40,190 nucleotides of DNA from IMG/VR virus record IMGVR_UViG_2698536576_000006, positions 1 to 40,190 of that record; one strand, 5' to 3'. Both the position numbers and the translations under genes were made by a program. Below, piece by piece: positions 1-15,235 of this stretch (position 1 is the first letter of the stretch; the number at the start of each line of letters is the position of its first letter). This stretch comes from a virus (lineage: Duplodnaviria; Heunggongvirae; Uroviricota; Caudoviricetes). The notes below the pieces were generated by a model. It saw nothing but the letters and a program-made list of their open reading frames with translations, did no database searches and was not told where the DNA came from.

Positions 1-1236
1 ATGGCGCTGTCTGATGCGTGGTTGCGTTCAGTCGTTGGAAAGGAACGTGATAAGGTTTTGGTTAAATCCGATCGTGATGGTCTGTCTGTCAGAGTATCAC
101 CGAAAGGTCGCGTAGTGTTCCAATATCGTTATCAATGGGCAGGGAAAGGTGAGCGCCTTGATATCGGAACTTATCCGGCAACTGGATTAAAAGAGGCCAG
201 AGAAGAAGTTATCCGTCTCCGTGGTGAACTCGAGTCAAACCGCAATCCACGATTAGTCAAGCAGGCTGAAAAACGAAAAGCTACTGAAGCCATGACGGTA
301 GAGTCTGTGATCCGTGCCTGGTATGAAGCATATTGTGTAAAAAATAAAAAAGGTTCTGAACAGATACTCCGCTCGTTTGAGCTGCACCTGTTCTCTAAAA
401 TCGGCAATATCCCTCACGATGCAGCTACATTGCATGATTGGTTAGAAGTCCTGGAGCCTCTTAGCACCAAGACTCCAGCAATAGCAGACCGATTGCTAAT
501 TAACGCAAAGCAGGCTCATGTCTGGGCGTATAAGAGAAAGCTCATTGAAACTCGCCCACTGTCGGATATCACGGGTAAAGATATGGATATCCGTAAAGGT
601 CAGAAAAAACGGTTTCTGACACATGATGAAATTAACATCCTTTATGCTGCGATCGATGGTTCTCGAATGGTTCCTAAATACCGGGCCTTCATTAAACTAT
701 TGCTGCATTTTGGTTGCCGTAGTTCAGAGCTAATTACTGCTAGGGTGGATGATTTTGATTTTATAAATAAGGTATGGACTGTACCACCAGAACGACATAA
801 GACTGGTGACATAACAGGCGAACCGCTAAAGCGGCCCATTATTGAACCGGTTGAAGAGCTTATAAAATACGTTATCTCTATGAACAACGGTTCCGATATG
901 CTTTTTACTAAGGAAGGAAGCAGGGAGCCAGTTGGTCGGACATCATTGCAGTCGCTGCCTTACAATTTAATGCAGTTCGCATGGCGACGTCTGGGGTATC
1001 AATTTCCTCATTGGTCTCTTCATGATTTGAGACGAACAGCACGAACAAACTTTTCTGATCTTACTGCTCCTCATATTGCTGAAATAATGCTCGGTCATAA
1101 ACTGCCTGGTGTATGGCAAGTTTATGATAAGAGCGATTATCTAGAAGAACAGCGTAAGGCTTACTGGGCATGGTGGGAGAGGGTTGAATCGATCGTTACT
1201 TGTACTGACTTAATCTCCAACGGGCAGTTTGCATAG
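1..1236 (+). CDS. int: Tyrosine site-specific integrase (P4-type phage integrase family)
   Basis: 411-aa ORF beginning at window base 1. N-terminal arm-binding-like region (FQYRYQWAGKGERLDIGTYP) and C-terminal catalytic region with HDLRRTART box and downstream Tyr are typical of P4-like integrases. Family assignment from memory, not searched. Confidence 0.9.
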   Translation: MALSDAWLRSVVGKERDKVLVKSDRDGLSVRVSPKGRVVFQYRYQWAGKGERLDIGTYPATGLKEAREEVIRLRGELESNRNPRLVKQAEKRKATEAMTVESVIRAWYEAYCVKNKKGSEQILRSFELHLFSKIGNIPHDAATLHDWLEVLEPLSTKTPAIADRLLINAKQAHVWAYKRKLIETRPLSDITGKDMDIRKGQKKRFLTHDEINILYAAIDGSRMVPKYRAFIKLLLHFGCRSSELITARVDDFDFINKVWTVPPERHKTGDITGEPLKRPIIEPVEELIKYVISMNNGSDMLFTKEGSREPVGRTSLQSLPYNLMQFAWRRLGYQFPHWSLHDLRRTARTNFSDLTAPHIAEIMLGHKLPGVWQVYDKSDYLEEQRKAYWAWWERVESIVTCTDLISNGQFA

Positions 1237-1409
1237 CCAGAGCGTAATCATATCTGCCAGTCCGCTGCGGATACCTTGTGTACTGGGTGTTTAGCCAGAC
1301 TACGTTAACCTGTAGCTTCAGTATTTATCTTTCAGCCTTTTGGGGTGTCGGCAGGAGTTTGATGGTTTATTGGGCTACTGTGGGACTAAGGATGTAGGGA
1401 TGCCAATCA

Positions 1410-2543
1410 ATGAATTATGAAAAATATCATAGCACAAACAGAAGCAAGGGTTTGCGAACCTTCTGCTACTTAATTTATTATGTGCAGGTGATTTTTAATG
1501 TGATGAAGTGTTTTATGACTCGCGGAAACTTTGATTTTATAAACTCTAACGTGGTTTTCTCAGAAGCCGATAAGTCATTGTGGATTGATCTCATTAACAC
1601 CGATTGTATTTGGTATGATATGATAATTAATCCTCCTGATGATATAAAAACAAATAAGATAATAAAGAACTATCTCAGAATCATGGAAAAATATACGAGG
1701 GAAAACTGTGAAAAGAGATTTATTTATTTCTTAGGTTCAAGAAAAAAAGTGAGGTTTTCAACCAAGAAACAGCCTAGGTATAACCCATTCACAAAAAATA
1801 TAGTTTTCACTCTGTTAATTGGCAAAGAGGAGCGAAAGCTTCGGATAAAATATCCTTTTTGCACGTTTACGCAGAATGGGGTAGTGAAGATAACTCCAAA
1901 TGTTAGAGTAACTGAGAAATTTCTCTACATTGAAGATGAAAATGGCAATTTATGTGTGATGTCAGTTCATGACTTCGTAAACGGACATTATATTGATTTA
2001 GGCATTCATACAGAAGTGCATTACGTAGGATATACACGTCATCCGCATCGGCGCCCTGTTGATTTTATTCACCGTGGCTTATCAAAGATGCTGTATAGCG
2101 TTTCAAATGACGATAATGATTTTTTTGTTTGTTTTAGTATATTTAATCCAAGAATTATATCTCTGAATAATAAATGCAATGTGGTCTTTAATATTTCAAA
2201 TTCTCTACTGGATGAAATTGATGTTGATAATGAGGGGCGAATTATTGAAAACTGCTTAATACGTTACTTTGATCCTAAGCTTCAAGATGATGACAAGGAA
2301 AGTAAAAGGTCAGATTTAAATAAAATGTTTATGGACTTGGTGGAAAATAAAAAAATTAAAAAAATATACGTTAATTTTCAATATAAAAGGAATAATGAGT
2401 ATTTCTGCTTTTACTCTAAAGTTGTTCCGCCGAAATTTCATCATTTCTTTGTGCTGGATTTTTCTGATGACAAGATAAATATTGATAGAGACCAGGATAT
2501 GATGACTCAGATGGCATTGTGCATGGGGTATTATAATTATTAA
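1410..2543 (+). CDS. Hypothetical AT-rich cargo protein, no recognisable domain
   Basis: 377-aa uninterrupted ORF in a visibly AT-rich block (Asn/Lys/Ile/Phe/Tyr-rich product) between int and the leftward early operon. Start uncertain: ATG 1410 or internal ATG near 1503. Confidence 0.45.
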   Translation: MNYEKYHSTNRSKGLRTFCYLIYYVQVIFNVMKCFMTRGNFDFINSNVVFSEADKSLWIDLINTDCIWYDMIINPPDDIKTNKIIKNYLRIMEKYTRENCEKRFIYFLGSRKKVRFSTKKQPRYNPFTKNIVFTLLIGKEERKLRIKYPFCTFTQNGVVKITPNVRVTEKFLYIEDENGNLCVMSVHDFVNGHYIDLGIHTEVHYVGYTRHPHRRPVDFIHRGLSKMLYSVSNDDNDFFVCFSIFNPRIISLNNKCNVVFNISNSLLDEIDVDNEGRIIENCLIRYFDPKLQDDDKESKRSDLNKMFMDLVENKKIKKIYVNFQYKRNNEYFCFYSKVVPPKFHHFFVLDFSDDKINIDRDQDMMTQMALCMGYYNY

Positions 2544-2764
2544 TATTTCGCCTGATACCAACTCAAAATCTGTTTTGTCGCATCCATTGTGGATTAATAT
2601 TCAGAGGTAAGGGGTATCAGCAGAATTTATATTTTGCAGGATGATCATACAATACATGATATATTGTCTCTAGCAACATCTGTTTCTGGCACAGAGCATA
2701 TAGTCAGATTACGTTTGGTTCTGTGCCATCGATGGATACTATCTCACCTCTTGGCTAACCCCCA

Positions 2765-2959
2765 TTACTCAATAACTCCAGCAAATCTGTATATCTTGCG
2801 TGATGCCCATTTATTTGGGCAGGATTTAATATCAGGATCTGGAAAATCTGGCCTGTATTTCTGGCCTGTCCTCCTATTTACGCTGTTCCAGCGAAGCACC
2901 GTCGATATTGAAACGCCACAGAATTCGGCGACTTGTTTTGTTGTCATTAAGTTGTTCAT
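2765..2959 (-). CDS. AlpA/Xis-like small helix-turn-helix DNA-binding protein (putative excisionase or regulator)
   Basis: 64-aa ORF with GGAGGGG RBS 5 nt upstream of ATG. Motif TTKQVAEFCGVSISTVLRW resembles the AlpA/Vis/excisionase HTH family. Last gene of the leftward operon. Confidence 0.6.
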   Translation of the reverse strand: MNNLMTTKQVAEFCGVSISTVLRWNSVNRRTGQKYRPDFPDPDIKSCPNKWASRKIYRFAGVIE

Positions 2960-2993
2960 TACTGCCCCTCCAGCGGTTGTTCAGTTGAAAGAC

Positions 2994-3530
2994 TCATGCG
3001 CATGTGCGTAACTCCGATAACTCGTTAAAGCGTTCCATAAACAGCCCGTAGGCATGGCCAGGAGCCAGAGGAATAACTTTGAACATCTCTGTTGCTTGGA
3101 TACCTTCCAATACTGGCCAGAAAGAGCCATCATCTAGCCCGAGATCGCGGCGTTCGGTTGCCAGCATGATGAGATCGGCATATTTCACAGGCGTGCTCAT
3201 AACCGGGGGTAACCCGTATTTCTCACGGATTACGGCGTCTATTTTTTCTTCCATCCGTTTATAGTCAGGAAGAAGGCGTTTCAGTGGCGCGGGGATGTCC
3301 TGACAATACGCTTCTGTTGCATCATGTATTAACGCTTCAAAAGCAAATTCCTGCGGTACCAGTTGGCTGCAAAGCACCGCATGTTGGGCAACGCTGTAGA
3401 AATGTGAAAGATGTCCTGCAAAGCGACAGATATTTGAAAGAGAAACCGCGATATCGTTAATAACGATGTCGTCTTTATTTATCCTGTCATAATAAAAATG
3501 CTTCCCGGAAAAAGTTTTAATAAATGACAT
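2994..3530 (-). CDS. HD-domain phosphohydrolase (YfdR-like prophage protein)
   Basis: Contains H...HD...D metal-binding signature (FAGHLSHFYSVAQHAV ... ALIHDATEAY). Start moved from ORF-track 3557 to internal ATG 3530 (MSFIKTF) because GGAG lies 6 nt upstream; gives 178 aa. Confidence 0.65.
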   Translation of the reverse strand: MSFIKTFSGKHFYYDRINKDDIVINDIAVSLSNICRFAGHLSHFYSVAQHAVLCSQLVPQEFAFEALIHDATEAYCQDIPAPLKRLLPDYKRMEEKIDAVIREKYGLPPVMSTPVKYADLIMLATERRDLGLDDGSFWPVLEGIQATEMFKVIPLAPGHAYGLFMERFNELSELRTCA

Positions 3531-3657
3531 TTTGTTCTCCACGTATATGCGCTGCACCGCGTTGAATTCTGGTAAAAGGAAGCCCTCACCATCCGGCGAT
3601 TATTGAGTCAATTACGTTTCCATAAATGCCCCCGCAGGGGCATTTGCAGTAATGAAA

Positions 3658-4482
3658 TCAGGCGGTGAAAGTACCAATAAAGGTTTCTACTTTGCTGTCC
3701 TTGAATTTCTCAACAAGCAGATCACGAAATTCGTTAGCCATTTCTTCCTGCACTGCTTCCAGCTGAATAATGCGCAGAACCAGTACAGGACGATCGCCAG
3801 TGATAATGCTGAGGCGTAATTTAAACGGACGTTCTTTCAGGCCTTCAAACGGAACGCATTTAAATTCAAATGCCACAGGCATAATATCTTTGGTCTTCGC
3901 TTCGACAGACTCCATCAGGGAGCGTTTGCCGCTGAAGTCATTGTCTTCAAAATCAGCGGTCTGGTTTGCTTCAATCGTGATTTTACGGACTGCCGCAGCC
4001 GCTTTTGTTGCCTGAATAGCATCACCATTAGCATCAAAGCCCACAAGGTAGTCGGCCCAGTCTTCGAGCCATTCTGCCAGTGACTTCTGGGAGTTACGCT
4101 CACCGTTAACAGACAACAGGGCAGAGAACGGTGCTGTCTTTTTCAGTTTGAGAGTGGCGGTGTTATCTGCGTGACCTGGTTCATCAATAGTACCCAGGTT
4201 AAGTACACTGACGGCACGCATATTATCAGCATCGATAAAGCAGCGGGTGCCTTCATCTGCAAGATCTTTAGAATAACGGGTAAAGTCATCGATGCTGGCA
4301 GTGGAAAGCGCACCACGGAAACGGAAGCGATTTAAATTAAATTTTTCCAGATCATGAATGCGGAAATTCTCAGGCAATGCCACAGCATCGGCACCAATCT
4401 TACTGATAATTTCATTAACACCCTGAGCAGAAATAAGGGTATGGATTTGATTAATTGCGGTTGCGTCTAAGTTCTGAGACAT
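3658..4482 (-). CDS. Conserved phage early protein (YfdQ-like, DUF2303-type), function unknown
   Basis: 274-aa ORF with GAGGA RBS 8 nt upstream. Length and position beside an HD hydrolase match the yfdQ-yfdR pair of E. coli KplE1/CPS-53-like prophages; identity recalled, not verified. Confidence 0.5.
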
Positions 4483-4547
4483 AATAAGTCCTCACTATAT
4501 AAAGATATTCAGTGATGAGATAAATAATCAGTTAATTAAGAACGATA

Positions 4548-4910
4548 TTAATGACCTGCTGCGCGTAATTTTCCGTCAGGCTCACCGGCAAGAGTCAGTA
4601 ATTGTCCCTGGTCTTCCTGCAGAATAGTCAGGCGACCACCGCGATTGACATACATCGGCGTTTCGGTGGTGTCTTCTTCGGAAATTTTCCCGCGGTTAGT
4701 CGGGCGAACATATGAGAGTTTGTGTTTGATTTTCACACGGTTCTCATCAAATGGTTCGATTTCCAGGTTGAGTGAGACCTTACCTTTGGTTTTCGTGTTC
4801 ATCACACCGGAAGCGACTTCACTGAGAACTGCGCCGATTTTGGTTTCAAATACGCCGCCGTCCAGCTCCCCGATAAATGCCTGCACATCAGTACCGCGTT
4901 CGCTAGCCAT
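4548..4910 (-). CDS. Hypothetical early-left protein (121 aa)
   Basis: ORF track gives 4548..5141, but AGGAGC lies 7 nt upstream of internal ATG at 4910 (MASERGTDVQ). The upstream extension runs into a GC-rich structured region and is unlikely to be coding. Confidence 0.55.
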   Translation of the reverse strand: MASERGTDVQAFIGELDGGVFETKIGAVLSEVASGVMNTKTKGKVSLNLEIEPFDENRVKIKHKLSYVRPTNRGKISEEDTTETPMYVNRGGRLTILQEDQGQLLTLAGEPDGKLRAAGH

Positions 4911-4954
4911 TTTGCTGCTCCTCATCATATCGACCCTGCAAGGTCGGTTGGTTT

Positions 4955-5215
4955 CTCCACAAAACAGAGAAGAACACCTGCGGTGGCAGCCGCCCGGATG
5001 GATTGGGTTATGAGCCCGTCGTCCGGTGATGCTCTTCTCTGTTTTGTAAAAAGGACGGTACCAGCCGGAAGCAAGTGTACAAACTGATACCGCCAACGCA
5101 GTGGCAGTTGTGGCGGGGTTGTCACTCAGGCGTATGGTCAACCTGACAACCCGGTGTCCTCAACGGGGAAAGAGTAACCCCGCCATACTTACCGCCGCGC
5201 CATTTCGCGGATTAC
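4955..5215. other. GC-rich highly structured noncoding segment (candidate regulatory RNA or leader structure)
   Basis: Perfect 15-bp long-range inverted repeat (4959-4973 acaaaacagagaaga with 5033-5047 tcttctctgttttgt), a 9-bp pair (5112-5120 ggcggggtt with 5176-5184 aaccccgcc), and nested shorter stems. No convincing ORF. Confidence 0.3.
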
Positions 5216-5754
5216 CACAATGCTGAGAGCACTTAGCCAGTTACGGCACCACACTTTGTCGCGATTCCATAAATGCCCTCATCGTTGCACCCTGGTATCT
5301 TCCCAGGCGTCAAACCGAACCGCCACGCTGGTTAGGCGTCTTATCAGCATTATCATTGACTTGCACATTCCGGCTACTTGGTTTGTTTGCCCGAGCAAGG
5401 AGTGGATTGTCCCCTTTAACGTCTCCAGACCGCTAACGACGCATGTGCCATACGCCGTGTTACAATAAAGTGTTCGGTATTAGTTACCAAAGAGACGATT
5501 ACTCTTATGGTTGAATGTAATACTCCTGTTGAATATTTTCTTGCTTACTATTTGTTTTTTCTATATAGCGAATTGGTTGTTTTGTTTACATAATAAGAGA
5601 TTTTCTTAAATAAGTTTACATTGTTTTGTCTTGCTATTTTTTAAAATTAAAGAACAATGAATTGTCGCTATCAGTAATTATTCTTTATGAAGTGTTATAA
5701 ATAACCCCCTGCTTTTGAGTTTTGTACGCAGTGTTTTTAGTTGTCGAGGACATT

Positions 5755-5964
5755 ATGGATAATCAAAATACTCCTGTTTTTGATGTATGTGGTTGGTACT
5801 GTGTACCAGTTAAAGATCATAATTCAGTTATAGTTCAACTGTCCTGCAAACAACCACCATTTGAATCTGATAAAATTATCGAAAGTCCAATATATTCTTT
5901 TCCCATAAAAGAAATACCAAATCTCATAAATACATTACAAAACATTTATGAAGAAAATAATTGA
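5755..5964 (+). CDS. Small hypothetical protein (69 aa), AT-rich
   Basis: ATG at 5755 preceded by GAGGA (4-nt spacing) and followed by a hairpin plus T-run at about 5986-6010. Convergent with cI; could be non-coding. Confidence 0.3.
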   Translation: MDNQNTPVFDVCGWYCVPVKDHNSVIVQLSCKQPPFESDKIIESPIYSFPIKEIPNLINTLQNIYEENN

Positions 5965-6074
5965 TTATAAATCCAGTTCAAAAGTGAAGCGTCCACTTGG
6001 GCGCTTTTTCATTTACGAATCATTCCGGTCTTCGTATGCCCCGGACGGCTACTTCGTGGGCGTCCTGCCTGTTC

Positions 6075-6121
6075 GATATCTTATGTAGGTACATTATGTA
6101 TCTCTAAGGTACATTGTCAAG
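6075..6121. promoter_or_regulatory. Left operator-like cluster (OL/pL candidate) with GGTACA half-site repeats
   Basis: GGTACATTATGTA (6088-6100) and GGTACATTGTCA (6108-6119) share the half-site found in the palindromic operator on the other side of cI. Confidence 0.45.
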
Positions 6122-6123
6122 TA

Positions 6124-6147
6124 TAAAAAAACCTGCCGAAGCAGGTT
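6124..6147 (-). terminator. Rho-independent terminator downstream of the repressor gene
   Basis: On the minus strand reads aacctgc-ttcg-gcaggtt followed by a T-run (A-run 6125-6131 on plus), 13 nt past the cI stop. Confidence 0.65.
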
Positions 6148-6159
6148 CATAGACATTGA

Positions 6160-6834
6160 TCAGGCTTTAATTTTGTATCTTCTTGGTTTTCCTGAGAAAA
6201 TAACTGTACCAATGATAGAGCAATTACCGTTTATCTTAATGTAAGGCTCAGGCCAGTTGGGGTTTAATGCTTTGAGATAACGCTGTGTCCCGTCTTCTAT
6301 CAACCTTTTGAAGGTGGTTTCACCTGTATCGTGCATCAATGCTATAACGTCATCGCCGTGGCAGGCTGGTACTTCTGGATCGACAAAAATCATGTCTCCC
6401 GGACGGTACTCATCAATCATTGAATCACCAATCACCCTCAATATATAAGTCATTTCGCCACAGGGTACAGGGCAGGGATACGTTTCTGTTGTGCTCAAAT
6501 CAACCTCAGAATAGCCAACTTCTTTCCATGCTCCGGCCTGTACCCATGATATGACAGGGACTAACGTTATTTGTTTATTAGTGATTGAAACATCAGGTTT
6601 TTTTGTGATGTTCGTTGTCTGGTGTTCTTGATCAAGCCATCCGACAGGCAGGTCGAAACATTTTTCGATGTGCCGTGCCATGCTGTCACCGATATTTTTA
6701 GTAGCGCCATCCCCCATAAACCTGCTGGTCTGGGTAGGCTCGCGATCAATCATGGTGGCAAAGGATGAATTTCCGCCAACACCATCTCTCAGTTTTCTGG
6801 CGTTAGACCGCCGGATGTCATGGATTGTTTTCAT
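6160..6834 (-). CDS. cI: CI-like prophage repressor (N-terminal HTH, C-terminal LexA-type S24 autopeptidase domain)
   Basis: 224 aa. C-terminal region carries the S24 motif (VIGDSM) typical of LexA/CI autocleaving repressors; divergent to a Cro-like gene with operators between. Confidence 0.85.
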   Translation of the reverse strand: MKTIHDIRRSNARKLRDGVGGNSSFATMIDREPTQTSRFMGDGATKNIGDSMARHIEKCFDLPVGWLDQEHQTTNITKKPDVSITNKQITLVPVISWVQAGAWKEVGYSEVDLSTTETYPCPVPCGEMTYILRVIGDSMIDEYRPGDMIFVDPEVPACHGDDVIALMHDTGETTFKRLIEDGTQRYLKALNPNWPEPYIKINGNCSIIGTVIFSGKPRRYKIKA

Positions 6835-6850
6835 AACGAAATTAAAACCT

Positions 6851-6924
6851 TTGTACCGATAAGGTACAAGTATCTTGAAGGTTCATTTTAATCATGTAAT
6901 ATGTATACTGGAGGTACATGTTGT
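6851..6924. promoter_or_regulatory. Right operator/promoter region (OR with pR and pRM candidates)
   Basis: Perfect palindrome TTGTACC-gataa-GGTACAA at 6851-6869 and a second GGTACAT site at 6912-6918. Candidate pR -35 TTGAAG and -10 TAATAT (16-nt spacer) just upstream of the cro-like ATG. Confidence 0.55.
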
Positions 6925-7125
6925 ATGAAAGCGTATTGGGACTCTTTAACCAAAGAACAGCAGGGCGAGTTGGCCGGAAAAGTTGGCTCAACACCAGGCT
7001 ACTTACGGATGGTTTTCAATGGTTATAAAAAAGCCAGTTTTATGCTGGCTAAAAAACTTGAGCAATGCACGTCAGGTGCAATTACGAAATCTGACTTAAG
7101 ACCGGATATCTATCCGAAAGATTAA
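6925..7125 (+). CDS. Cro-like / YdaS-family small HTH regulator
   Basis: 66-aa ORF from ATG 6925 (MKAYWDS) with GGAGG upstream. C-terminal LRPDIYP motif and size match the Cro/YdaS family; divergent from cI. Confidence 0.7.
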   Translation: MKAYWDSLTKEQQGELAGKVGSTPGYLRMVFNGYKKASFMLAKKLEQCTSGAITKSDLRPDIYPKD

Positions 7126-7156
7126 CAGAACACCTTCAATTTTTAACCACAGAACG

Positions 7157-7720
7157 ATGAGGCTAACCGTGGGTAAGCATCACTGGAAAGTAGAAAAACA
7201 GCCTGAGTGGTACGTGAAAGCTGTCAGAAAAACTATCGCGGCGTTGCCGGGGGGTTACGCTGAAGCTGCTGAGTGGCTGGATGTAACAGAGAACGCTTTA
7301 TTCAACCGCCTTCGTGCAGATGGCGATCAGATTTTCCCGCTGGGATGGGCAATGATTTTACAGCGCGCGGCTGGCACTCACTACATTGCGGATGCTGTCG
7401 CACAGTCTGCTGGTGGGGTGTTTGTATCGCTTCCTGAAATTGAGGAAGTAGAGAACGCCGATATAAACCAGCGCCTGCTGGAAGTCATCGAACAGATCGG
7501 GAGTTACTCAAAGCAGATTCGTTCGGCAATCGAAGATGGGGTAGTGGAGCCACACGAGCAGACAGCAATTAATGATGAGTTGTATCTGTCGATTTCGAAG
7601 CTCCAGGAGCATGCGGCACTGGTCTACAAAATTTTCTGCGCTCCAGAAAAGAGTGACGCCCGCGAGTGTGCAGCTCCGGGCGTCGTGGCGTTTTGTGTCT
7701 GTGGAGAAACTAACGCATGA
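7157..7720 (+). CDS. Early regulatory protein, possibly YdaT-family (CII-position gene)
   Basis: Second gene of the rightward early operon, directly after the Cro-like gene. Stop overlaps the next start (ATGA). Family assignment tentative; start may be GTG 7169. Confidence 0.4.
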   Translation: MRLTVGKHHWKVEKQPEWYVKAVRKTIAALPGGYAEAAEWLDVTENALFNRLRADGDQIFPLGWAMILQRAAGTHYIADAVAQSAGGVFVSLPEIEEVENADINQRLLEVIEQIGSYSKQIRSAIEDGVVEPHEQTAINDELYLSISKLQEHAALVYKIFCAPEKSDARECAAPGVVAFCVCGETNA

Positions 7721-8553
7721 ACAGTTTAACGGCAAATAACCGTTTGTCGCAACAGCTGGTGGTCAGCGTCGCTGAACACCTGTTGTTACGGCATGAATGC
7801 AGATTACCAAATCACCTGGCTGTAAGTAACCACAGAGAACTTTACCTGACTGTGGGGGGCGAGTTGTGCAGGAACTTAACCGCTGGTTTCGTGACGGAAG
7901 AGGGCTTTATGTCCATGTTATTCGTTGGGAGCCAGAAACACAGCGCGTTATCTATCTTCGCAAAGACTACCCGCATGAGTGCTTTAGTCCTTTGTGGAAA
8001 TTCAGGCGTGATTTTGTTGAGTGTGAAGGACCACCAGCACATTGATTCTGCCATTCCGGGACGTTACACTGTTCAGGCACCTTATAAAGCGGGTGTCGGG
8101 ATTGGCGTCCTGGAATTGCATACGGCGACAATTGGCGCGTTAGCGTCTTTTTTGTTGCTACAACTCAGCTATACCCAAATTATGGTGGGCTGGGTGGGGG
8201 CACCGAAAGGTGCGCCGGTTTCCGTATGCGCCGGTTACGCCAACCCTGCTCAGTTCACCACCAGCGAAATTGGCGTTTCCGGTGGTGGAAGTTATCCATT
8301 GCATACGGAGGCTGCCATCATGGCTACTGTCCCAGCCCTCTCTCGTCTGAATGATGAAGACTTACATAAACTCAGTTATGTAACAACTGCACTACGTGCT
8401 CTGCGCAAGGTAACTCTTTCGGATCCGCAGGCGCATCAAGTTCTGGTAGAAACCCTTCTTAACTTGCAGGCTGAACGTATTCGTCTGGCGGATAAGGCTA
8501 ATTTTCATATTCACTGTCTCCTGAATATCAGCGGAGGGCATCGTCATGCTTAA
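7717..8553 (+). CDS. Hypothetical early protein (278 aa)
   Basis: Translationally coupled on both sides (ATGA overlap at 7717, ATGCTTAA overlap at 8546-8553). No recognisable motif; no Walker A. Confidence 0.45.
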   Translation: MNSLTANNRLSQQLVVSVAEHLLLRHECRLPNHLAVSNHRELYLTVGGELCRNLTAGFVTEEGFMSMLFVGSQKHSALSIFAKTTRMSALVLCGNSGVILLSVKDHQHIDSAIPGRYTVQAPYKAGVGIGVLELHTATIGALASFLLLQLSYTQIMVGWVGAPKGAPVSVCAGYANPAQFTTSEIGVSGGGSYPLHTEAAIMATVPALSRLNDEDLHKLSYVTTALRALRKVTLSDPQAHQVLVETLLNLQAERIRLADKANFHIHCLLNISGGHRHA

Positions 8554-8782
8554 TCCGTTGATCCTCAATATTTGCCGTTTGCTTCAGCGTAAAAAAACAT
8601 CAATTCCTACAGTTGGGCAGTGGTACACCACACCTGCAGGGCATGTTCTACGTGTTAGCCTGGTTGACCGTGAATGTCAGAAGGTGATTTGTGAACCGCT
8701 GGGCCGTAATTACCGCATCAGTATGCCGCTTATAGCCTTTTGCTCCGGAAAAAACATGAAGCATCTCGGAGGTGCAGCATGA
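8546..8782 (+). CDS. Small hypothetical protein (78 aa)
   Basis: ATG overlapping the upstream stop and ending in an ATGA overlap with the next gene; supported by coupling only. Confidence 0.35.
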   Translation: MLNPLILNICRLLQRKKTSIPTVGQWYTTPAGHVLRVSLVDRECQKVICEPLGRNYRISMPLIAFCSGKNMKHLGGAA

Positions 8783-9597
8783 GTATGGAGCTGATGGTTA
8801 AAGCGATGAAAATTCGAGTGGGTAATCCATTGCGAAAACTGGTTCTGATCAAGCTGGCTGATAATGCCAGCGATCAGGGGGAGTGCTGGCCCAGCTACCA
8901 GCATATTGCTGACCAGTGCGAGATTAGCAAACGTTCTGTGATGAATCATATTGCGGCCCTTTGTGAGTCCGGGCTGGTAAAAAAAGTCACCCGGAAAGGT
9001 GAAAAAGGTAACTCAAGTAATATCTATCTCCTTCATCTTGATGGTGCAGGAGATTCACTAGGGGGTAGTGCAAATAATTCACTATCTGGTGCAGCAAATT
9101 CACCAGGTAGTGCAGGAGTTGCACCAGGGGGTAGTGCAGGAGATTCACCCAGAACCAGTCACTCTTTTGAACCAGTCAAAGAATCAGTCAATGAACCAAT
9201 AGCTGTTGGTGCATCTGCTGATGAGTCTGTGCGAGTTCGTTCAAACCGACCGGAATACTCTCCGGAGTTTGAGCAGGCATGGCTGGCATATCCCAAACGT
9301 GCTGGTGGCAATTCAAAATCAGCATCCTTCAAAGCCTGGAAAGCCCGTTTGAACGAGGGGGTAAACCCCGAAACCATGCTGGAAGGTGTGAAACGCTACG
9401 CGGGCTGGGTATCTGCGATGGGCAATAGCGGCACACAATTTGTGAAACAGGCTGTCACGTTCTTTGGTCCGGATCGTCATTTCGAAGAATCCTGGGAAGT
9501 TCCTGCGGTATCTGCAGCCAGACGTGAGGACCCGTACTTCAAAGCCAGTTACGACAACGTGGACTACAGCCAGATCCCGGCAGGATTCAGGGGGTGA
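8779..9597 (+). CDS. Replication initiator (lambda O-like) with N-terminal winged-HTH and internal origin repeats
   Basis: N-terminal motif PLRKLVLIKLADNASDQGECWPSYQHIADQCEISKRSV is typical of phage replication-organizer HTH domains. Start set at ATG 8779 (GGAGG 7 nt upstream) rather than TTG 8740. The linker region contains the iteron-like repeats. Confidence 0.65.
   Translation: MSMELMVKAMKIRVGNPLRKLVLIKLADNASDQGECWPSYQHIADQCEISKRSVMNHIAALCESGLVKKVTRKGEKGNSSNIYLLHLDGAGDSLGGSANNSLSGAANSPGSAGVAPGGSAGDSPRTSHSFEPVKESVNEPIAVGASADESVRVRSNRPEYSPEFEQAWLAYPKRAGGNSKSASFKAWKARLNEGVNPETMLEGVKRYAGWVSAMGNSGTQFVKQAVTFFGPDRHFEESWEVPAVSAARREDPYFKASYDNVDYSQIPAGFRG
9043..9150 (+). repeat. Iteron-like direct repeats (candidate replication origin) inside the initiator gene
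   Basis: Five copies of a 17-nt core GTGCA(G/A)NANNT(T/C)CAC(C/T)A starting at about 9045, 9068, 9089, 9110 and 9134 (21-24 bp period), several with internal GTGCA/TGCAC dyad. Lambda ori iterons sit at the same position within O. Confidence 0.55.
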
Positions 9598-9599
9598 TC

Positions 9600-10088
9600 A
9601 TGAGTCTTTTGAATGAAGTTCAGAAATTCATTGAAGCCCATCCGGGGTGTACTTCCGGAGACATTGCGGATGCTTTTGCAGGTTACTCACGGCAGCGCGT
9701 TCTGCAGTCAGCAAGCAAGTTACGTCAGAGTGGGCGTGTGGCTCACCGTTGTGAAGGGGATACACGCAGACATTTCCCGCGCCAGACAAAGATATCGCCG
9801 GAGGCGGAACGGCAACCAGTTCGTGAAACCAGACCTGTGCGCAATTTCTATGTCGGCACTAACGACCCGCGGGAGATTTTATGCCTGACCCGCCAGGCTG
9901 AAGAACTGGAGTCCAGGGGCTTATACCGTCGTGCTGCAACGGTGTGGATGGCGGCATTCCGTGAAAGCCACTCCCAGCCAGAACGAAACAATTTTCTGGC
10001 GCGTCGTGAGCAGTGTTTACGGAAAAGCAGCAAGCGCGCTGTATCGGGTGATGAGTGGTATCTGTCAGGGAATTACGTGGGGGCTTAA
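9600..10088 (+). CDS. Putative transcriptional regulator with PerC-like C-terminal region
   Basis: C-terminal motif AEELESRGLYRRAATVWMAAF resembles the PerC/Pch activator signature (recalled, not searched). Start set at ATG 9600 after GGGGG RBS. Stop overlaps the next start (TAATG). Confidence 0.4.
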   Translation: MSLLNEVQKFIEAHPGCTSGDIADAFAGYSRQRVLQSASKLRQSGRVAHRCEGDTRRHFPRQTKISPEAERQPVRETRPVRNFYVGTNDPREILCLTRQAEELESRGLYRRAATVWMAAFRESHSQPERNNFLARREQCLRKSSKRAVSGDEWYLSGNYVGA

Positions 10089-10741
10089 TGAGTAATAAAT
10101 ATTGCCAGGAGCTGGTGGAACTGCGGAACAAACCAGCCCATGAACTGAAGGAAGTGGGCGATCAGTGGCGCACGCCGGACAACATTTTCTGGGGAATTAA
10201 CACCCTGTTTGGTCCGTTTGTTCTGGATCTGTTCACTGACGGTGATAACGCCAAATGTGCTGCGTATTACACGGCGGAAGACAACGCGCTGGCGCATGAC
10301 TGGTCAGAACGCCTTGCGGAGCTTAAAGGTGCTGCCTTTGGAAATCCCCCATACAGCCGCGCCAGTCAGCATGAGGGGCAATACATCACCGGCATGCGTT
10401 ACATCATGAAGCATGCCAGTGCCATGCGTGATAAGGGCGGGCGCTATGTTTTCCTGATCAAAGCTGCCACCAGCGAAGTGTGGTGGCCGGAAGATGCAGA
10501 TCATATTGCTTTTATTCGCGGGCGTATTGGTTTTGAACTGCCTGCCTGGTTTATCCCGAAGGATGAGAAGCAGGTGCCGACAGGCGCTTTCTTCGCTGGT
10601 GCTATTGCTGTTTTCGACAAGACCTGGAAGGGACCGGCAATCAGCTACATCGGGCGCGATGAACTTGAGGCATGTGGTGAGGCGTTTCTGGCGCAGGTTC
10701 GCCTGCAGGCGGAAAAGCTGGTCAGGGAGATGGCGGCATGA
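10088..10741 (+). CDS. Phage orphan DNA N6-adenine methyltransferase (Dam-like)
   Basis: Contains the amino-methyltransferase catalytic motif NPPY (AAFGNPPYSRA) and a phage-Dam-like N-terminus. Start at ATG 10088 overlapping the upstream stop. Confidence 0.8.
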   Translation: MSNKYCQELVELRNKPAHELKEVGDQWRTPDNIFWGINTLFGPFVLDLFTDGDNAKCAAYYTAEDNALAHDWSERLAELKGAAFGNPPYSRASQHEGQYITGMRYIMKHASAMRDKGGRYVFLIKAATSEVWWPEDADHIAFIRGRIGFELPAWFIPKDEKQVPTGAFFAGAIAVFDKTWKGPAISYIGRDELEACGEAFLAQVRLQAEKLVREMAA

Positions 10742-11064
10742 CGACGTTAACTCAATGCCAGCAGCAGGTGCTGGATATGCTGATTTCTTATCAGAAAGAG
10801 CGTGGCTTCCCGCCAACCAATCAGGAGGTGACAACCATGCTGGGATACCGTTCGGTGAATGCAGCGGTGGAGCATCTTCGCGCACTGGAGAAAAAAGGCG
10901 TCATCACGATAAAGCGTGGTGTGGCCCGGGGGATCACGCTTCATACCGCGGTGAAGGACGACGACAGCGAGGCGGTCGGGATTATCCGCTCACTGCTTGC
11001 CGGTGAGGAAAACGCAAGGCTGCGTGCAACTCACTGGTTACATGAGAGAGGCCTGAAAGTATGA
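10738..11064 (+). CDS. Small DNA-binding protein with LexA-type N-terminal winged-helix domain
   Basis: 108 aa; N-terminus (LTQCQQQVLDMLISYQKERGFPPTNQEV) resembles the LexA DNA-binding domain, with no peptidase domain. Coupled ATGA start. Confidence 0.5.
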   Translation: MTTLTQCQQQVLDMLISYQKERGFPPTNQEVTTMLGYRSVNAAVEHLRALEKKGVITIKRGVARGITLHTAVKDDDSEAVGIIRSLLAGEENARLRATHWLHERGLKV

Positions 11065-11450
11065 AGCTGATCCTGCCTTTCCCGCCCAGCGTGAACACCT
11101 ACTGGCGACACCCCAACAAAGGGGCATTTGCTGGTAAGAGCCTGATAAGCGCGGCGGGGCGAAAATTTCAGAGCGCGGCGTGCGCAGCAATAGTTGAGCA
11201 GTTACGTCGTCTGCCAAAACCAACGTCGGCACCTGCTTCAGTGGAGATCGTGTTGTTTCCTCCGGATAACCGGATCCGCGATCTGGACAACTATAACAAG
11301 GCGCTGTTTGACGCCCTGACCCACGCGGGTGTGTGGGAAGACGACAGACAGGTGAAAAGAATGCTGGTGGAGTGGGGACCGGTTATCCCGAAAGGGAAGG
11401 TCGAGATCACTATCAGTAAGTATGAGAAACCGGCGGGTGCAGCCGCCTGA
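11061..11450 (+). CDS. rusA: Holliday junction resolvase RusA
   Basis: 129 aa with hallmark RusA motifs (LPFPPSVNTYWRH, RIRDLDNYNKALFDALTHAGVWEDD). Typical Nin-region position upstream of Q. Confidence 0.9.
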   Translation: MKLILPFPPSVNTYWRHPNKGAFAGKSLISAAGRKFQSAACAAIVEQLRRLPKPTSAPASVEIVLFPPDNRIRDLDNYNKALFDALTHAGVWEDDRQVKRMLVEWGPVIPKGKVEITISKYEKPAGAAA

Positions 11451-11469
11451 TTAAGAGGAGAAACGAAGT

Positions 11470-12279
11470 ATGAATAATCTGATGGTTATTGATGGTATTG
11501 AAGTTCGTCGTGATGCTTATGGGCGTTACAGCCTGAACGATCTGCACAGGGCAGCCGGGGGAGAACAAAAAAACCGCCCGAAATACTGGCTCTCCAATAA
11601 GCAAACCTGTGAATTGATTGAACAACTTTTCACCGAGGGTGGAATTCCGCCTCTGGAACAAAATCAACCAGTTAGCGTCATTAATGGCGGAAATAACCAG
11701 GGGACGTATGTCTGCAAAGAACTGGTGTATGCCTATGCAATGTGGATCAGCCCGTCATTCCATCTGAAGGTGATCCGTACTTTCGATATGGTAACCAGCG
11801 CACCGGAAAAATTATCCGGGCAGGCTGCTGACAAGATGCAGGCTGGCGTGATCCTGCTGGACTTTATGCGCCGGGAGTTAAATCTGTCTAACTCATCAGT
11901 GCTTGGTGCCTGTCAGAAACTTCAGGAGGCTGTTGGCTTACCGAATCTGGCACCGCGCTATGCCATTGATGCTCCTGCTGACGCGCCTGATGGCTCAAGT
12001 CGCCCCACGCTGTCGCTGAGTGCACTGCTGAAACAGTATGGTATCCGCCTGACGGCTAATCAGGCATATCACCAGATGGTGAAGCTGGGGATCGTCGAGC
12101 AGCGCGAACGATACAGCCGTACCGCGATTAACAACATCAAAAAATTCTGGTCACTGACAGCGAAAGGCTGCATGTTCGGCAAGAACATCACCAGTCCCGC
12201 AAATCCGCGCGAGACGCAGCCGCATTTCTTCGAATCCCGATTCCCTGAGCTGTTAAAGCTGCTCGATACCGTACATTGA
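11470..12279 (+). CDS. KilA-N domain protein (antirepressor-like)
   Basis: N-terminal IDGIEVRRDAYGRYSLNDLHRAAG...KRPKYWL...YAYAMWISPSFHLKVIRTF matches the KilA-N DNA-binding domain. AAGAGGAG RBS upstream. Confidence 0.7.
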   Translation: MNNLMVIDGIEVRRDAYGRYSLNDLHRAAGGEQKNRPKYWLSNKQTCELIEQLFTEGGIPPLEQNQPVSVINGGNNQGTYVCKELVYAYAMWISPSFHLKVIRTFDMVTSAPEKLSGQAADKMQAGVILLDFMRRELNLSNSSVLGACQKLQEAVGLPNLAPRYAIDAPADAPDGSSRPTLSLSALLKQYGIRLTANQAYHQMVKLGIVEQRERYSRTAINNIKKFWSLTAKGCMFGKNITSPANPRETQPHFFESRFPELLKLLDTVH

Positions 12280-12280
12280 G

Positions 12281-13276
12281 GTGACCGTGAGAGCACTACT
12301 GACCCCTGAAATTGCCCCGCGTATGGGGATCGTATTGTTCAGACCAGGTTCAGAGCTGATGCCCCTGTTTATGCAGGGGCGTGTCCTGCTGGAGCCTGAG
12401 CCGGAACGTTATTCATCTTTCGCCAGTGGTGCCGTTCCGGCGGCATCACAACCGCTGGCGGATGATCCTGCCGTTCGGGCCGTGTTCCGCAATGAGGCAG
12501 TTATTCGTCGTGCGGGTGGCGTGGAATGTCTTGAAAGCTGGTTACTTCGTGAAAAGGGCTGTCAGTGGCCTCATTCCGACTGGCACAGCGAGAACATGAC
12601 CACAATGCGACACGCTCCGGGCGCAATCCGTCTGTGCTGGCACTGCGATAACCAGCTGCGCGATCAGTTCACGGAACGGCTGGAATCAATGGCAACGGAT
12701 AACTGTGCCCGCTGGGTGTTGTCTGTTGTGCGTCGGGATCTCGGTTTTGATGACAGTCACGTTGTGACAATGCCGGAACTGTGCTGGTGGCTGATTCGTA
12801 ATGACCTGGCGGATGCCTTACCGGAAAGTGCAGCCCGTAAGGCACTGAGATTACCAAAGCCTGTTGTGCCGTCTGTCACCCGGGAAAGTGACCTTGTGCC
12901 TTCGGTTCCTGCCACCAGCATCATCCAGGATAAAGCGAAAAAGGTGCTGGCGCTGAAAGTGGATCCGGAGTCGCCGGAGTCTTTTATGTTACGCCCAAAA
13001 CGTCGCCGCTGGGTTAATGAAAAGTACACGCGCTGGGTTAAGACACAGCCGTGTGCATGTTGTGGAAAGCCCGCTGATGATCCCCACCACCTGATAGGTC
13101 ACGGTCAGGGTGGAATGGGAACAAAAGCGCATGACCTTTTTGTGTTGCCTTTGTGCAGAAAGCATCACGACGAGCTGCATGCGGATACCGTGGCATTTGA
13201 AGAGAAGTATGGCTCCCAGCTGGAGCTGATATTTCGTTTTATCGATCGTGCGCTGGCAATTTGCGTGCTGGCCTGA
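12281..13276 (+). CDS. DUF968-type protein with C-terminal HNH-like Cys/His motif
   Basis: C-terminus CACCGKPADDPHHLIGHGQGGMGTKAHDLFVLPLCRKHHDELH is the DUF968/HNH-like signature common in Nin regions. Start (GTG 12281 or 12287) uncertain. Confidence 0.6.
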   Translation: MTVRALLTPEIAPRMGIVLFRPGSELMPLFMQGRVLLEPEPERYSSFASGAVPAASQPLADDPAVRAVFRNEAVIRRAGGVECLESWLLREKGCQWPHSDWHSENMTTMRHAPGAIRLCWHCDNQLRDQFTERLESMATDNCARWVLSVVRRDLGFDDSHVVTMPELCWWLIRNDLADALPESAARKALRLPKPVVPSVTRESDLVPSVPATSIIQDKAKKVLALKVDPESPESFMLRPKRRRWVNEKYTRWVKTQPCACCGKPADDPHHLIGHGQGGMGTKAHDLFVLPLCRKHHDELHADTVAFEEKYGSQLELIFRFIDRALAICVLA

Positions 13277-13293: not shown

Positions 13294-13638
13294 ATGCGTG
13301 ATATGTATGAAGTTTTGGACCGCTGGGGGGCATGGGCTGCTGCAGAAAACAGTGGTGTGGACTGGCAACCGGTAGCCGCTGGCTTCAAGGGGCTTTTACC
13401 TCATGGCAGAAAGTCCCGGATTCAGTGCGATGATGATGAGGGCATCATAATAGACGGTTGTGTCTCTCGGTTGCGTAAATATAAACCGGAAGAGTATGAG
13501 CTGATCATTGCACACTTTGTTATTGGTATATCGCTTCGAACTATTGCGAAGAAGCGAAAGTGCTCTGATGGAACGATAAGGAAGGAGCTACAAACTGCAA
13601 TAGGATTCGTTGAAGGGTGTATGTTGATTTTGTTTTGA
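13294..13638 (+). CDS. Q: Late-gene antiterminator Q
   Basis: Motifs RWGAWAA...AAGFKGL...QCDDDEGIIIDGCVSRL...KCSDGTIRKELQTAIGFVEGC match the phage antitermination Q family. Start set at ATG 13294 with GGAGA RBS. Confidence 0.8.
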   Translation: MRDMYEVLDRWGAWAAAENSGVDWQPVAAGFKGLLPHGRKSRIQCDDDEGIIIDGCVSRLRKYKPEEYELIIAHFVIGISLRTIAKKRKCSDGTIRKELQTAIGFVEGCMLILF

Positions 13639-13669
13639 TATTCGCAGAAGCCGCTAATGCGGCTTCTAA

Positions 13670-14152
13670 TTAAGAATTTATATTTCTTTTCTCTTCAAAT
13701 AATTCTTTAATTTTTAATGGTATAAATGTTGATTGTATGAATGAAAAACATGTTAAGAACGAAATTAAATGTGCAATAGTGGTTTTGGTATAATCAAAAT
13801 AAATACCGGAATGTGTTTTATCCTTGGATAAAAGATAAAAAACAAATATTAATGCAAGTGTAATTATATACATCAAAAATAAAGTGTAATATTTTACAAA
13901 GCGCATATAAAATCTAGTGTTTTGGTTTTCTTTTTCTAATGCATTAAGCGATTTAGATATTGATGAGTTTTCACCGGACATTGTGATAACTAACAATAAA
14001 AAACCAGATAGGATTGAGAAGACATTTGCAACAAGATTTAATGCATCATTATTATTTGTCAAACTATTCGTAAGATATTTGGAGAAAAGAAAGGAAGCCA
14101 CAAAATTTCCTATGGTAACTGAAATACCTGTCCAGTTATAATCTTTAAGCAT
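13670..14152 (-). CDS. Small four-helix integral membrane protein (RexB-like in topology), second gene of an inverted AT-rich two-gene module
   Basis: 160 aa with four hydrophobic segments of about 20 residues (res ~9-27, 38-60, 89-108, 124-146). AT-rich; opposite strand to the flanking phage late genes. Confidence 0.55.
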   Translation of the reverse strand: MLKDYNWTGISVTIGNFVASFLFSKYLTNSLTNNNDALNLVANVFSILSGFLLLVITMSGENSSISKSLNALEKENQNTRFYMRFVKYYTLFLMYIITLALIFVFYLLSKDKTHSGIYFDYTKTTIAHLISFLTCFSFIQSTFIPLKIKELFEEKRNINS

Positions 14153-14179
14153 ATGGCTCCCCTACAGTCTTTAGTTGCA

Positions 14180-15001
14180 TTATAACACATTTGTGACAAA
14201 ATGCTCTAAAATTTCATAAGCATATTTACTGGAAATTGTTTGTGATCCATATGGTAATGTGTAGTAAGTTTTTGTAAGTTTCATATCATCGCTAGTGATT
14301 TTCTCTCCTTTTTTAGTTTCAAAATAAAAGTCACTGTTTAAATCAGATAACCAGGGAGTCGGGTTACTTTCGATTGATGCAGCAACGGCAGGGTTACCTC
14401 TGGCATCAATAGTAAAATGACCACTTATTCCTGTTTGTTTTAATTTTGGTTCTTTTTTTACAAACGATGATAAGAAGTTAGGTTTTTTAACAAAATCTGA
14501 CTCATGTACATTGAAATTCACATGTACAGCACGTAAACCATCATCTTTTACTTTTTGAATTACATTCTTCTTTAAAACAGCTGACGGTATTATATCTATA
14601 CCGTAGCATTTGAATATTTTTGCTATTTTGACCTCACTCCAGTTGGTGGATATTTGAAGAAGTGAAGCAATCTGATTGCCTTTAACCATAAAAAAAGCAT
14701 GGAGATTGTCAAAATTTTCAACATCTAACAAATCTTTAACATTGGGTTTGTTTGGGGTAATCGATACTTCTTCTTTAGGGTTGTACAAAGAAAAATGTAA
14801 GTAATGGATATTACCACTGGTCCTGAATTCTTTTAACTTTAAATGTCTGTTAGTTGATAATGTGATTACGGAGCCCTGTACAAGTTGTTTATTGGTTGAT
14901 ATTTGCTGAAATAAATTATTTTTCCCGTCAAGGTTTACATTAAAAGCCCTGACTTGGCATTTTTTTGTTAAGTTGCTGTTTTTAGTGTCAGAAAAGTTCA
15001 T
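14180..15001 (-). CDS. Soluble 273-aa protein, first gene of the inverted two-gene module (candidate RexA-like sensor)
   Basis: AT-rich ORF 27 nt upstream of the membrane-protein gene on the same strand. Soluble ~270 aa plus ~150-aa 4-TM pairing mirrors lambda rexA-rexB. A short stretch (FFMVKGNQIASL) resembles my recollection of RexA; this is unverified. Confidence 0.5.
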   Translation of the reverse strand: MNFSDTKNSNLTKKCQVRAFNVNLDGKNNLFQQISTNKQLVQGSVITLSTNRHLKLKEFRTSGNIHYLHFSLYNPKEEVSITPNKPNVKDLLDVENFDNLHAFFMVKGNQIASLLQISTNWSEVKIAKIFKCYGIDIIPSAVLKKNVIQKVKDDGLRAVHVNFNVHESDFVKKPNFLSSFVKKEPKLKQTGISGHFTIDARGNPAVAASIESNPTPWLSDLNSDFYFETKKGEKITSDDMKLTKTYYTLPYGSQTISSKYAYEILEHFVTNVL

Positions 15002-15235
15002 GGTTTCCCCTTGTTCGCTGTGTGCCCTTATTCTAAAAAAAAACTACTGCGTACGCAAAAACTATTGTATCGTGTTAAGAGTGGTTACTACGCCACACAG
15101 CTTAAACCTGCTGCCAAGCGGGGTTTTTTGTGTCCGAAAAGTGGTGCAGTACGTTAAATGTGTATGTTGTTTTTTTAATATTCAGAAATAATAAAAACAC
15201 ATGCGTATATTTACAAATATTGACATTGTTTTCTA

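Follow-up and report, generated by a model that had tools for sequence, protein, structure and literature searches.

A swappable prophage cassette beside the integrase gene encodes a protein with a probable divergent GIY-YIG core, a plausible single-gene defence candidate

The DNA analyzed here (the window, which is the whole stretch of 40,190 nt of the IMG/VR virus record IMGVR_UViG_2698536576_000006) is a prophage with a lambdoid early region and contractile-tail genes, whose insertion site in E. coli lies between yjjG and prfC. Between its integrase gene and its early-left operon lies a gene whose product is labelled hypothetical in every source; our results indicate that it very probably encodes a member of the GIY-YIG superfamily, and that it travels in a cassette of about 1.4 kb. 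An earlier reading made from the letters alone (the sequence-only reading) had singled out this gene for its extreme AT bias and for being co-oriented with the integrase and opposite to the adjacent phage operon. Both observations hold: the open reading frame (ORF) has a GC content of 32%, compared with a window mean of 50% (standard deviation 6.4% over length-matched windows, of which just 13 out of 784 fall below 32%), and it shares the direction of the integrase gene while being convergent with the minus-strand excisionase-like ORF, yfdR, yfdQ and yfdP. The features of the locus are as follows.

1..1236, plus strand: tyrosine integrase gene of the prophage, left anchor of the cargo slot (ORF with a tyrosine-type recombinase/integrase annotation; 94-96% identity in prophages with other cargos)
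1265..1514, plus strand: non-coding leader travelling with the gene, including 105 nt formerly read as codons 1-35 (cross-genus homology starts at 1265)
1515..2543, plus strand: predicted coding sequence (CDS) of 342 amino acids (aa) plus stop, member of phrog_7779 and of a probable new GIY-YIG-containing family (PHROGs match, homolog alignment, and the ratio of non-synonymous to synonymous substitution rates, dN/dS)
2544..2670, plus strand: 3' trailer reaching the right-hand end of the swappable cassette (cross-genus homology stops at 2659-2698, and prophages carrying another cargo rejoin at 2642-2673)
2765..2959, minus strand: excisionase-like small helix-turn-helix (HTH) ORF of 64 aa, anchoring the slot on the right and closing the convergent early-left operon (HTH_17/MerR matches that are weak and under the Pfam cut-off)

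The excisionase-like ORF has no annotation in the RefSeq record; the record of phage PhiR63_1 annotates instead an overlapping ORF on the opposite strand (2634-3011, plus), which has no family match.

The ORF listing of the window contains an uninterrupted frame at 1410..2543 on the plus strand, and the NCBI annotation carries both a 377-aa and a 342-aa length for the product. The PHROGs family phrog_7779, of unknown function, covers residues 36-377 of the long frame from end to end (E = 2.9e-241), and nearly all homologs are 320-345 aa long and start at the M-x-R-G methionine that corresponds to residue 36. Across four sequences the stretch 1380-1535 has a mean column identity of 89%, and DNA matching the 35-codon extension is kept in Dryocola and Pantoea, yet with in-frame stops and a 1-nt indel. 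Because the homologs start at M36 and the extension is interrupted in other genera, we rule out the 377-aa reading (1410..2543) and predict that the true CDS is 1515..2543, 342 aa; the single long ORF of the sequence-only reading thus keeps its uninterrupted frame and loses its first 35 codons. Residue numbers in this text count from M36.

Several lines of evidence show that the gene is real and under purifying selection. Compared with the approximately 96%-identical allele of PhiR63_1, the gene body carries 13 synonymous and 7 non-synonymous changes (dN/dS = 0.12), and the structure prediction for the 342-aa protein is confident. An exhaustive profile search among 1.84 billion proteins recovered 216 representatives (clusters at 50% identity) from many phyla, down to 17% identity; nearly all full-length members are 300-350 aa long and none is fused to a larger protein. 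In a species-dereplicated scan with two peptide patterns, which gives a lower bound, the family was present in 47 of 185,579 species, the hosts being Gamma-, Beta- and Epsilonproteobacteria plus single Desulfobacterota, Verrucomicrobia and Acidobacteria. Within E. coli, 62 of 5,426 complete genomes carry the gene, in one copy each and chromosomal every time. One 99.8%-identical copy lies in a degraded prophage (NZ_LR882057.1, 4254500-4295300) that carries an IS3 and in which the portal and N6-adenine methyltransferase genes are truncated; an intact gene inside such a decayed element is consistent with its retention for the benefit of the host. Disrupted forms also occur, namely an IS1 inserted within the cassette region of E. 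coli strain MMC-J-0091 (NZ_CM128544.1) and shortened gene copies in Shigella flexneri and S. dysenteriae.

The limits of the transferred unit were delimited by two independent comparisons, which agree. When the window was compared by blastn with the Dryocola and Pantoea loci a single collinear match of 83-84% identity was obtained, which starts at 1265 and stops at 2698 or 2659. Moreover, E. coli prophages that share the integrase (~93-96% identity) and the yjjG/prfC site and carry another cargo match the window over 1..1231-1266 and resume at 2642-2673, so that the recombination breakpoints of the slot coincide with the ends of the cross-genus homology. The unit is a 1.4-kb cassette composed of a 250-nt leader, the CDS and a trailer of ~120 nt. 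The integrase-proximal cargo slot proposed from the sequence alone is borne out by sister prophages carrying at least three other unrelated inserts in it: a pair of genes for 150-aa and 160-aa proteins (L014:1625-2601), a gene for a 515-aa protein (L015:1697-3244) and one for a 239-aa protein (L016:1812-2531), none of which has a Pfam or PADLOC match. The comparison with related prophages lacking the gene, which that reading had recommended, gave one of the two sets of junctions; most related prophages do not carry the gene. In Stx2c-converting phages the integrase and the early-left region are in common with the window (1-13266, ~96% identity over 45% of this stretch) and the nuclease cassette is absent, evidence that mosaic exchange takes place around the slot. 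Within the leader, positions 1452-1481 resemble a promoter (TTGCGA-18-TATTAT), with a -35 element that is kept across genera. The search downstream of the gene gave no intrinsic terminator, and the folding of the trailer RNA was not significant (z = -1.4).

The sequence-only reading had regarded the gene as an orphan, with no motif that could be placed; this no longer holds, since a GIY-YIG likeness is detectable by fold as well as by profile comparison. One block of the family alignment, H-Y-[VI]-G-x-T-x-N-P-x-x-R-P-x4-H-x-G, is invariant, and beyond it N229, E240 and E245 are conserved as well; the block and E245 resemble the YIG...R...H...E signature of GIY-YIG nucleases, and the idea was then tested. 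The parts of the protein are listed here.

1515..1949, plus strand: N-terminal region, residues 1-145, a hairpin and helix followed by a small beta-domain; candidate target-recognition or sensor module
1950..2285, plus strand: predicted GIY-YIG-like catalytic core, residues 146-257, with candidate beta1 S-[IV]-[H/Y]152-D-F, then Y170-V-G172, R180, H186, E245 and Q257 (family alignment, hhalign)
2007..2078, plus strand: His-rich patch HTEVHYVGYTRHPHRRPVDFIHRG, corresponding to the predicted YIG strand, the putative catalytic Arg R180 (nt 2052-2054) and the His H186 (nt 2070-2072) (hhalign, conservation)
2247..2285, plus strand: helix E245-x6-[YF]F-x4-Q257, with the predicted metal-binding Glu and the Gln equivalent to Asn (alignments, conservation)
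2286..2540, plus strand: C-terminal region, residues 258-342, a long helix and beta strands, with conserved S301, H310 and F312 (structure prediction, conservation)

The predicted fold agrees with the alpha/beta fold of the GIY-YIG superfamily, a three-stranded antiparallel sheet flanked by helices; SLX1 is among the lower-ranked entries of the match list. For the profile comparisons, the sequences of I-TevI, UvrC and EndoII were checked against the PDB and then aligned, and the family was represented by an alignment of 120 members, down to 17% identity. Using hhalign, the family matched 7 verified GIY-YIG domains with a probability of 72-85% (P = 3e-5 to 7e-6, 72-78 columns) and the I-TevI/UvrC/EndoII set with a probability of 72.5% (E = 3.3e-5, 73 columns), mapping Y170, G172, R180, E245 and Q257 onto I-TevI Y17, G19, R27, E75 and N90, respectively. 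Because the result varied with the reference alignment, it was calibrated with subfamily profiles and permutation nulls. Separate UvrC, EndoII and I-TevI profiles, built from a broader set of 120 PF01541 proteins (a homolog search with I-TevI alone gave 8 close relatives, too few for a profile), all placed their best alignment on one stretch and in one register, being individually weak (P = 1e-4 to 7e-3), and the real scores exceeded those of all 150 column-permuted nulls of the family core for four references (z = 12.7, 8.9, 6.3 and 4.7). The N- and C-terminal regions alone showed no similarity to the GIY-YIG references (P >= 0.1).

Conservation follows the same pattern: among the 120 members Y170 is found in 109, G172 in 113, T174 in 114, P177 in 116, R180 in 108, H186 in 106, E245 in 107 and Q257 in 90. 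The spacing from the YIG Tyr to the Arg (Y170/R180) equals that of I-TevI (Y17/R27), UvrC (Y29/R39) and EndoII (Y47/R57), these residues being aligned in all reference sets; E245 aligns with E75, E76 and E118 of the same three enzymes, and the 12 residues from E245 to Q257 equal the spacing of E76-N88 in UvrC and E118-N130 in EndoII. Searches of the PDB by sequence and by profile found nothing, and the query protein did not match Pfam PF01541, whose gathering score it does not reach; that criterion is insensitive between GIY-YIG branches, because phmmer with I-TevI retrieves neither UvrC nor EndoII. With the fold, the YIG-Arg pair and the Glu in place, the Asn position occupied by Gln, the GIY Tyr not covered by the alignments and the Pfam threshold missed, the protein very probably belongs to the GIY-YIG superfamily, and we are confident that residues ~146-257 form a divergent GIY-YIG core, whose catalytic competence is likely.

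The His-rich patch, suggested earlier to be a metal site, covers residues 165-188. It does fall in the predicted active site; as a metal site it is not sustained, given that of its five His only H186 is well conserved, H169 is present in 67 of 120 members and H165, H176 and H178 lack conservation. GIY-YIG enzymes use a glutamate as metal ligand, and the predicted ligand here is E245. Outside the core, the N-terminal region holds the most conserved basic strand, K67-R68-F-I-Y71-F..R76-K-K78-V-R80-F (nt 1713-1757), and the most conserved residues of the protein include some that do not belong to the canonical catalytic set (Y71, R76, R80, D202, S301 and H310).

To learn about the company this gene keeps, we surveyed 640 neighbour proteins from 46 loci. 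No conserved partner gene was found, no neighbour family occurring in more than 6 of the 46 loci and those that did lying at varying positions, nor did the Pfam families that are frequent in the closest genes include a methyltransferase; with no recurring neighbour family, the gene therefore acts alone, as a stand-alone unit. The flanking genes differ in almost every species and the contexts include chromosomal defence islands and integrative and conjugative elements (ICEs), most homologs lying outside recognisable prophages. A compact island of Robbsia andropogonis (L003, 3969-13129) contains a BrxR-type WYL regulator, the ubiquitin-like BilA/B/(C)/D genes, the homolog and then two adjacent RVT_1 reverse transcriptases (430 and 661 aa). 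In a Salmonella ICE the homolog is near a methylase/DUF4928/Vsr module, and this methylase, the only one nearby, pairs with its own DUF4928/Vsr module. Conflict genes of the CTD6/MC2 type lie beside the homolog in a Proteus smpB island, a methyltransferase-PLD-helicase-DUF3427 protein and the start of a DUF3375 (Wadjet JetA) gene on a metagenomic contig, CcdAB and a PIN toxin in a Pseudomonadales genome, and Shango SngA with an ArdC-type gene in Dryocola; in Providencia a different integrase is directly upstream.

In 34 species the four nearest genes (+/-2) match 176 PADLOC models at E <= 1e-5 and genes at least 7 positions away match 14, counts which refer to redundant models, not proteins, and are without a genome-wide background. 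The models matched by the near genes include SngA, DitA/B, TRIP13, CBASS endonuclease and SAVED-HNH effectors, AbiEii, QatC, PD-Lambda-3, MADS and several PDC candidates. The family is thus found recurrently beside defence genes or in cargo hotspots, a defence association that is qualitative. The defence role suggested by the sequence-only reading has support by association only, from Bil, restriction-modification (R-M), CTD6/MC2, Wadjet, Shango, CBASS, AbiE and Qat neighbours. Two loci also showed unannotated genes around the homolog: on a metagenomic contig, two large proteins (567 and 591 aa) flank it near gyrB/recF (L008, 9132-12594), and in Arcobacter it is preceded by a Band_7 protein and two unknown genes (L005, 5859-7971). 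These may be further uncharacterised island genes.

Taking fold, cassette and neighbourhoods together, we hold with moderate confidence that the gene encodes a stand-alone GIY-YIG DNA endonuclease, borne on a cassette and giving immunity against incoming phages or mobile DNA. Beyond the nuclease fold this is an argument from association; catalysis, DNA as the substrate, a role in defence and discrimination of self from non-self are inferred. In characterised GIY-YIG enzymes one metal ion is held by Glu, an Arg acts on the phosphate and Tyr/His activate the water (PMC11037411). By analogy, the protein would be a single-chain DNA endonuclease with its divergent core (~146-257) placed between novel N-terminal (1-145) and C-terminal (258-342) regions; E245 would be the ligand of a single divalent metal ion, R180 would act on the scissile phosphate by stabilising it, and Y170 and H186, plus H/Y152 or another residue of the first strand, would place the attacking water or activate it. 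Target choice would fall to the flanking domains, which would limit cleavage to foreign DNA, and the 1.4-kb cassette would pass between integrase-proximal slots of prophages, conjugative elements and defence islands, providing an immunity protein expressed from the lysogen. Given that the gene has no methyltransferase, antitoxin or other partner conserved beside it and stays intact under purifying selection, host DNA would have to be spared in one of two ways. Either cleavage would need a feature found only in foreign DNA, as in the type IV-like enzymes PD-T4-3/CMoRE and wH-GIY-YIG, or the enzyme would be inactive until infection. Dam- or Dcm-type marks would be excluded as triggers in E. coli because the host itself carries them.

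Single-gene type IV enzymes that combine a sensor with a GIY-YIG nuclease are precedents for such an arrangement (PMC12923530, PMC11037411). PD-T4-3/CMoRE (PDB 9u75) is a GIY-YIG type IV restriction endonuclease borne by E. coli prophages and directed at 5-hydroxymethylcytosine (5hmC) and glucosyl-hmC; its catalytic domain, marked by a GIYxY-YIG motif, is N-terminal, 5hmC is sensed by a C-terminal domain, and an acidic loop is inhibitory (PMC12923530). Our protein does not match the PADLOC model of PD-T4-3, its core is central instead of N-terminal, its first motif is degenerate (S-I-[H/Y]-D-F) and its Asn is replaced by Gln, and its flanking domains are unrelated; thus membership in PD-T4-3/CMoRE is ruled out. 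The wH-GIY-YIG endonucleases Ahi29725I and Apa233I are modification-dependent type IV enzymes that act on N6-methyladenine (PMC11037411). They resemble the arrangement proposed here in having a reader domain fused to a GIY-YIG nuclease and acting alone as a type IV enzyme. However, no winged-helix (wH) domain was detected in our protein, the sequence likeness is known only at superfamily level, and E. coli hosts are Dam+, so that a G6mATC-dependent enzyme would be self-toxic. UvrC is a housekeeping repair protein with further domains, and enzymes of the R.Eco29kI type (PDB 3mx4) have an adjacent cognate methyltransferase. In the 46 loci no methyltransferase recurs beside the present gene, unlike in R-M systems of the Eco29kI/Hpy188I type, and a type II system of the Eco29kI type is ruled out on this basis. 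The protein is best described as representing a GIY-YIG family so far unrecognised, new in its domain architecture and likely to act in conflict.

A bolder form of the defence reading, to which we give somewhat less than an even chance, makes the gene the founding member of an undescribed single-gene immune system. Here the first motif would have changed from Tyr to His, a DUF971-like beta-domain with its invariant basic strand and the C-terminal S301/H310 module, neither of which has a known counterpart in restriction enzymes, would control the nuclease and sense a novel feature of foreign DNA or an infection signal, and the promoter-bearing 1.4-kb cassette would have spread, by way of prophage slots next to integrases, ICEs and defence islands, to at least six bacterial phyla or classes. 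The searches of the available literature library returned no study of the protein family, of protection by it against phage, or of phage PhiR63_1, and the gene is not in PADLOC-DB v2. The susceptibility of strain ECOR13 to T4, lambda-vir and T7 was considered as counter-evidence and dropped, since ECOR13 appears to be the propagation host of PhiR63_1 and not necessarily a lysogen.

A number of results weigh against an immunity endonuclease. Searches of Pfam, NCBIfam and PADLOC with the query protein gave no significant match, PF01541 was touched by only 1 of 40 family members (E = 0.012), Foldseek against the PDB and BFVD gave no match at E <= 0.001, and a 16-sequence reference dominated by I-TevI aligned over 19 columns only, which makes the profile result dependent on the reference. 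The canonical Asn is a Gln, a conservative yet non-canonical replacement with which activity could be altered or lost. The GIY half was covered by no hhalign alignment: the strand that precedes the YVG strand has the sequence S-[IV]-[H/Y]-D-F, and its position 152 (97 His and 15 Tyr among the 120 members) comes 18 residues ahead of the YIG Tyr, compared with the canonical 10-11; the invariant RFIYF at residues 68-72 is an alternative candidate, and chimera alignments did not discriminate between the two strands. On the genomic side, besides the redundancy of the PADLOC counts, the distal gene set still contains the defence genes Avs3, DRT, viperin and MADS, several loci simply have guaA/guaB or other housekeeping genes as neighbours, and the promoter-like site of the leader matches the consensus weakly and is only a lead, the scan having given 7 such sites where chance predicts 8.

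Among other explanations, the one that survives best, unlikely as we consider it, is a free-standing homing endonuclease, which would cut int-xis junction alleles lacking the cassette and copy itself in by repair with no benefit to the host. Homing endonucleases of the I-TevI/Seg kind (PDB 1ln0) have an N-terminal catalytic domain and C-terminal NUMOD/HTH modules and lie between conserved phage genes. The sister prophages carry other unrelated cargos in the slot instead of an empty target site, the flanking genes vary by species and belong to defence islands and ICEs instead of conserved phage gene pairs, and domain searches detected no NUMOD/IENR-type DNA-binding module around a catalytic core that is central. 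As neither such modules (NUMOD, IENR or HTH), nor conserved neighbours, nor empty target sites in the sister prophages were found, the protein is not one of the I-TevI/Seg enzymes.

Slightly less probable is a nuclease that serves the phage itself in the lytic cycle or in competition between prophages, either degrading host or rival DNA as T4 endonuclease II does or processing the DNA of its own phage. T4 endonuclease II (EndoII, DenA; PDB 2wsh) is a 136-aa enzyme of a lytic phage that nicks cytosine-containing host DNA; the present protein differs from it in being 342 aa long with extra domains, in belonging to temperate and chromosomal elements and in having ~14% identity in the aligned region. 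Against this reading, most homologs are outside recognisable prophages and most related prophages do without the gene. The gene is convergent to the early-left operon and has a conserved leader of its own, an arrangement typical of morons expressed in the lysogen; its nearly identical copy was moreover kept in the degraded prophage that has lost its portal gene and acquired IS3.

A catalytically dead GIY-YIG derivative, binding nucleic acid or another ligand as a regulator or decoy, we regard as improbable. It would account for a first-strand Tyr that is mostly His, for the Gln in place of Asn, for a GIY half that profile alignment did not recover, and for non-canonical residues being among the most conserved (Y71, R76, R80, D202, S301 and H310), a hint of a second functional site. 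Yet Y170, G172, R180, H186 and E245 persist in 88-94% of the 120 members, even among the most distant ones, a pattern that is difficult to account for unless the protein is catalytic. As a general base, His can stand in for Tyr, and the 15 members with Tyr152 show this position interconverting between the two residues that such a role would call for. Finally, that the ORF is a decaying remnant, which the sequence-only reading had named among its refuting outcomes, or a spurious frame in AT-rich DNA is very improbable: the 35 annotated 5' codons are indeed non-coding, one strain has an IS1 in the gene and the Shigella copies are shortened, yet the low dN/dS, the full-length 320-345-aa homologs with conserved motifs across several phyla and the confident structure prediction effectively refute it.

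As read from its sequence and context, the gene is a plausible and testable single-gene defence candidate. If it encodes an active defence nuclease, it would add a new family and domain architecture, recognised by none of the Pfam, NCBIfam and PADLOC libraries, to the small set of single-gene GIY-YIG immunity enzymes (PD-T4-3/CMoRE, wH-GIY-YIG). Its flanking domains could define a new way of discriminating foreign from self DNA and could possibly yield a reagent, as with other modification-dependent nucleases. With a precisely delimited cassette, and a slot in which no fewer than three further unknown cargos occur, this prophage family is a compact and tractable source of candidate defence genes. 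Should the nuclease be selfish or serve the phage instead, the interest would be modest and for specialists.

Other AT-rich patches are present in the window. The region 13600-15050 is more AT-rich still (minimum GC 0.296) and lies within the plus-strand late-regulatory region by antiterminator Q; its ORFs at 13670..14152 (minus strand, 160 aa) and 14180..15001 (minus strand, 273 aa) are annotated as hypothetical, have no PADLOC match and occur at full length in just 9 of the 5,426 E. coli genomes. Shiga toxin (Stx) phages carry stx at the position next to antiterminator Q. In the region 5400-6000, with a GC content of 0.29-0.32, a hypothetical 69-aa ORF without a PADLOC match (5755..5964, plus strand) is located between yfdP and the gene for a LexA-family repressor (6160..6834, minus strand), and it may be another small moron by the immunity region.

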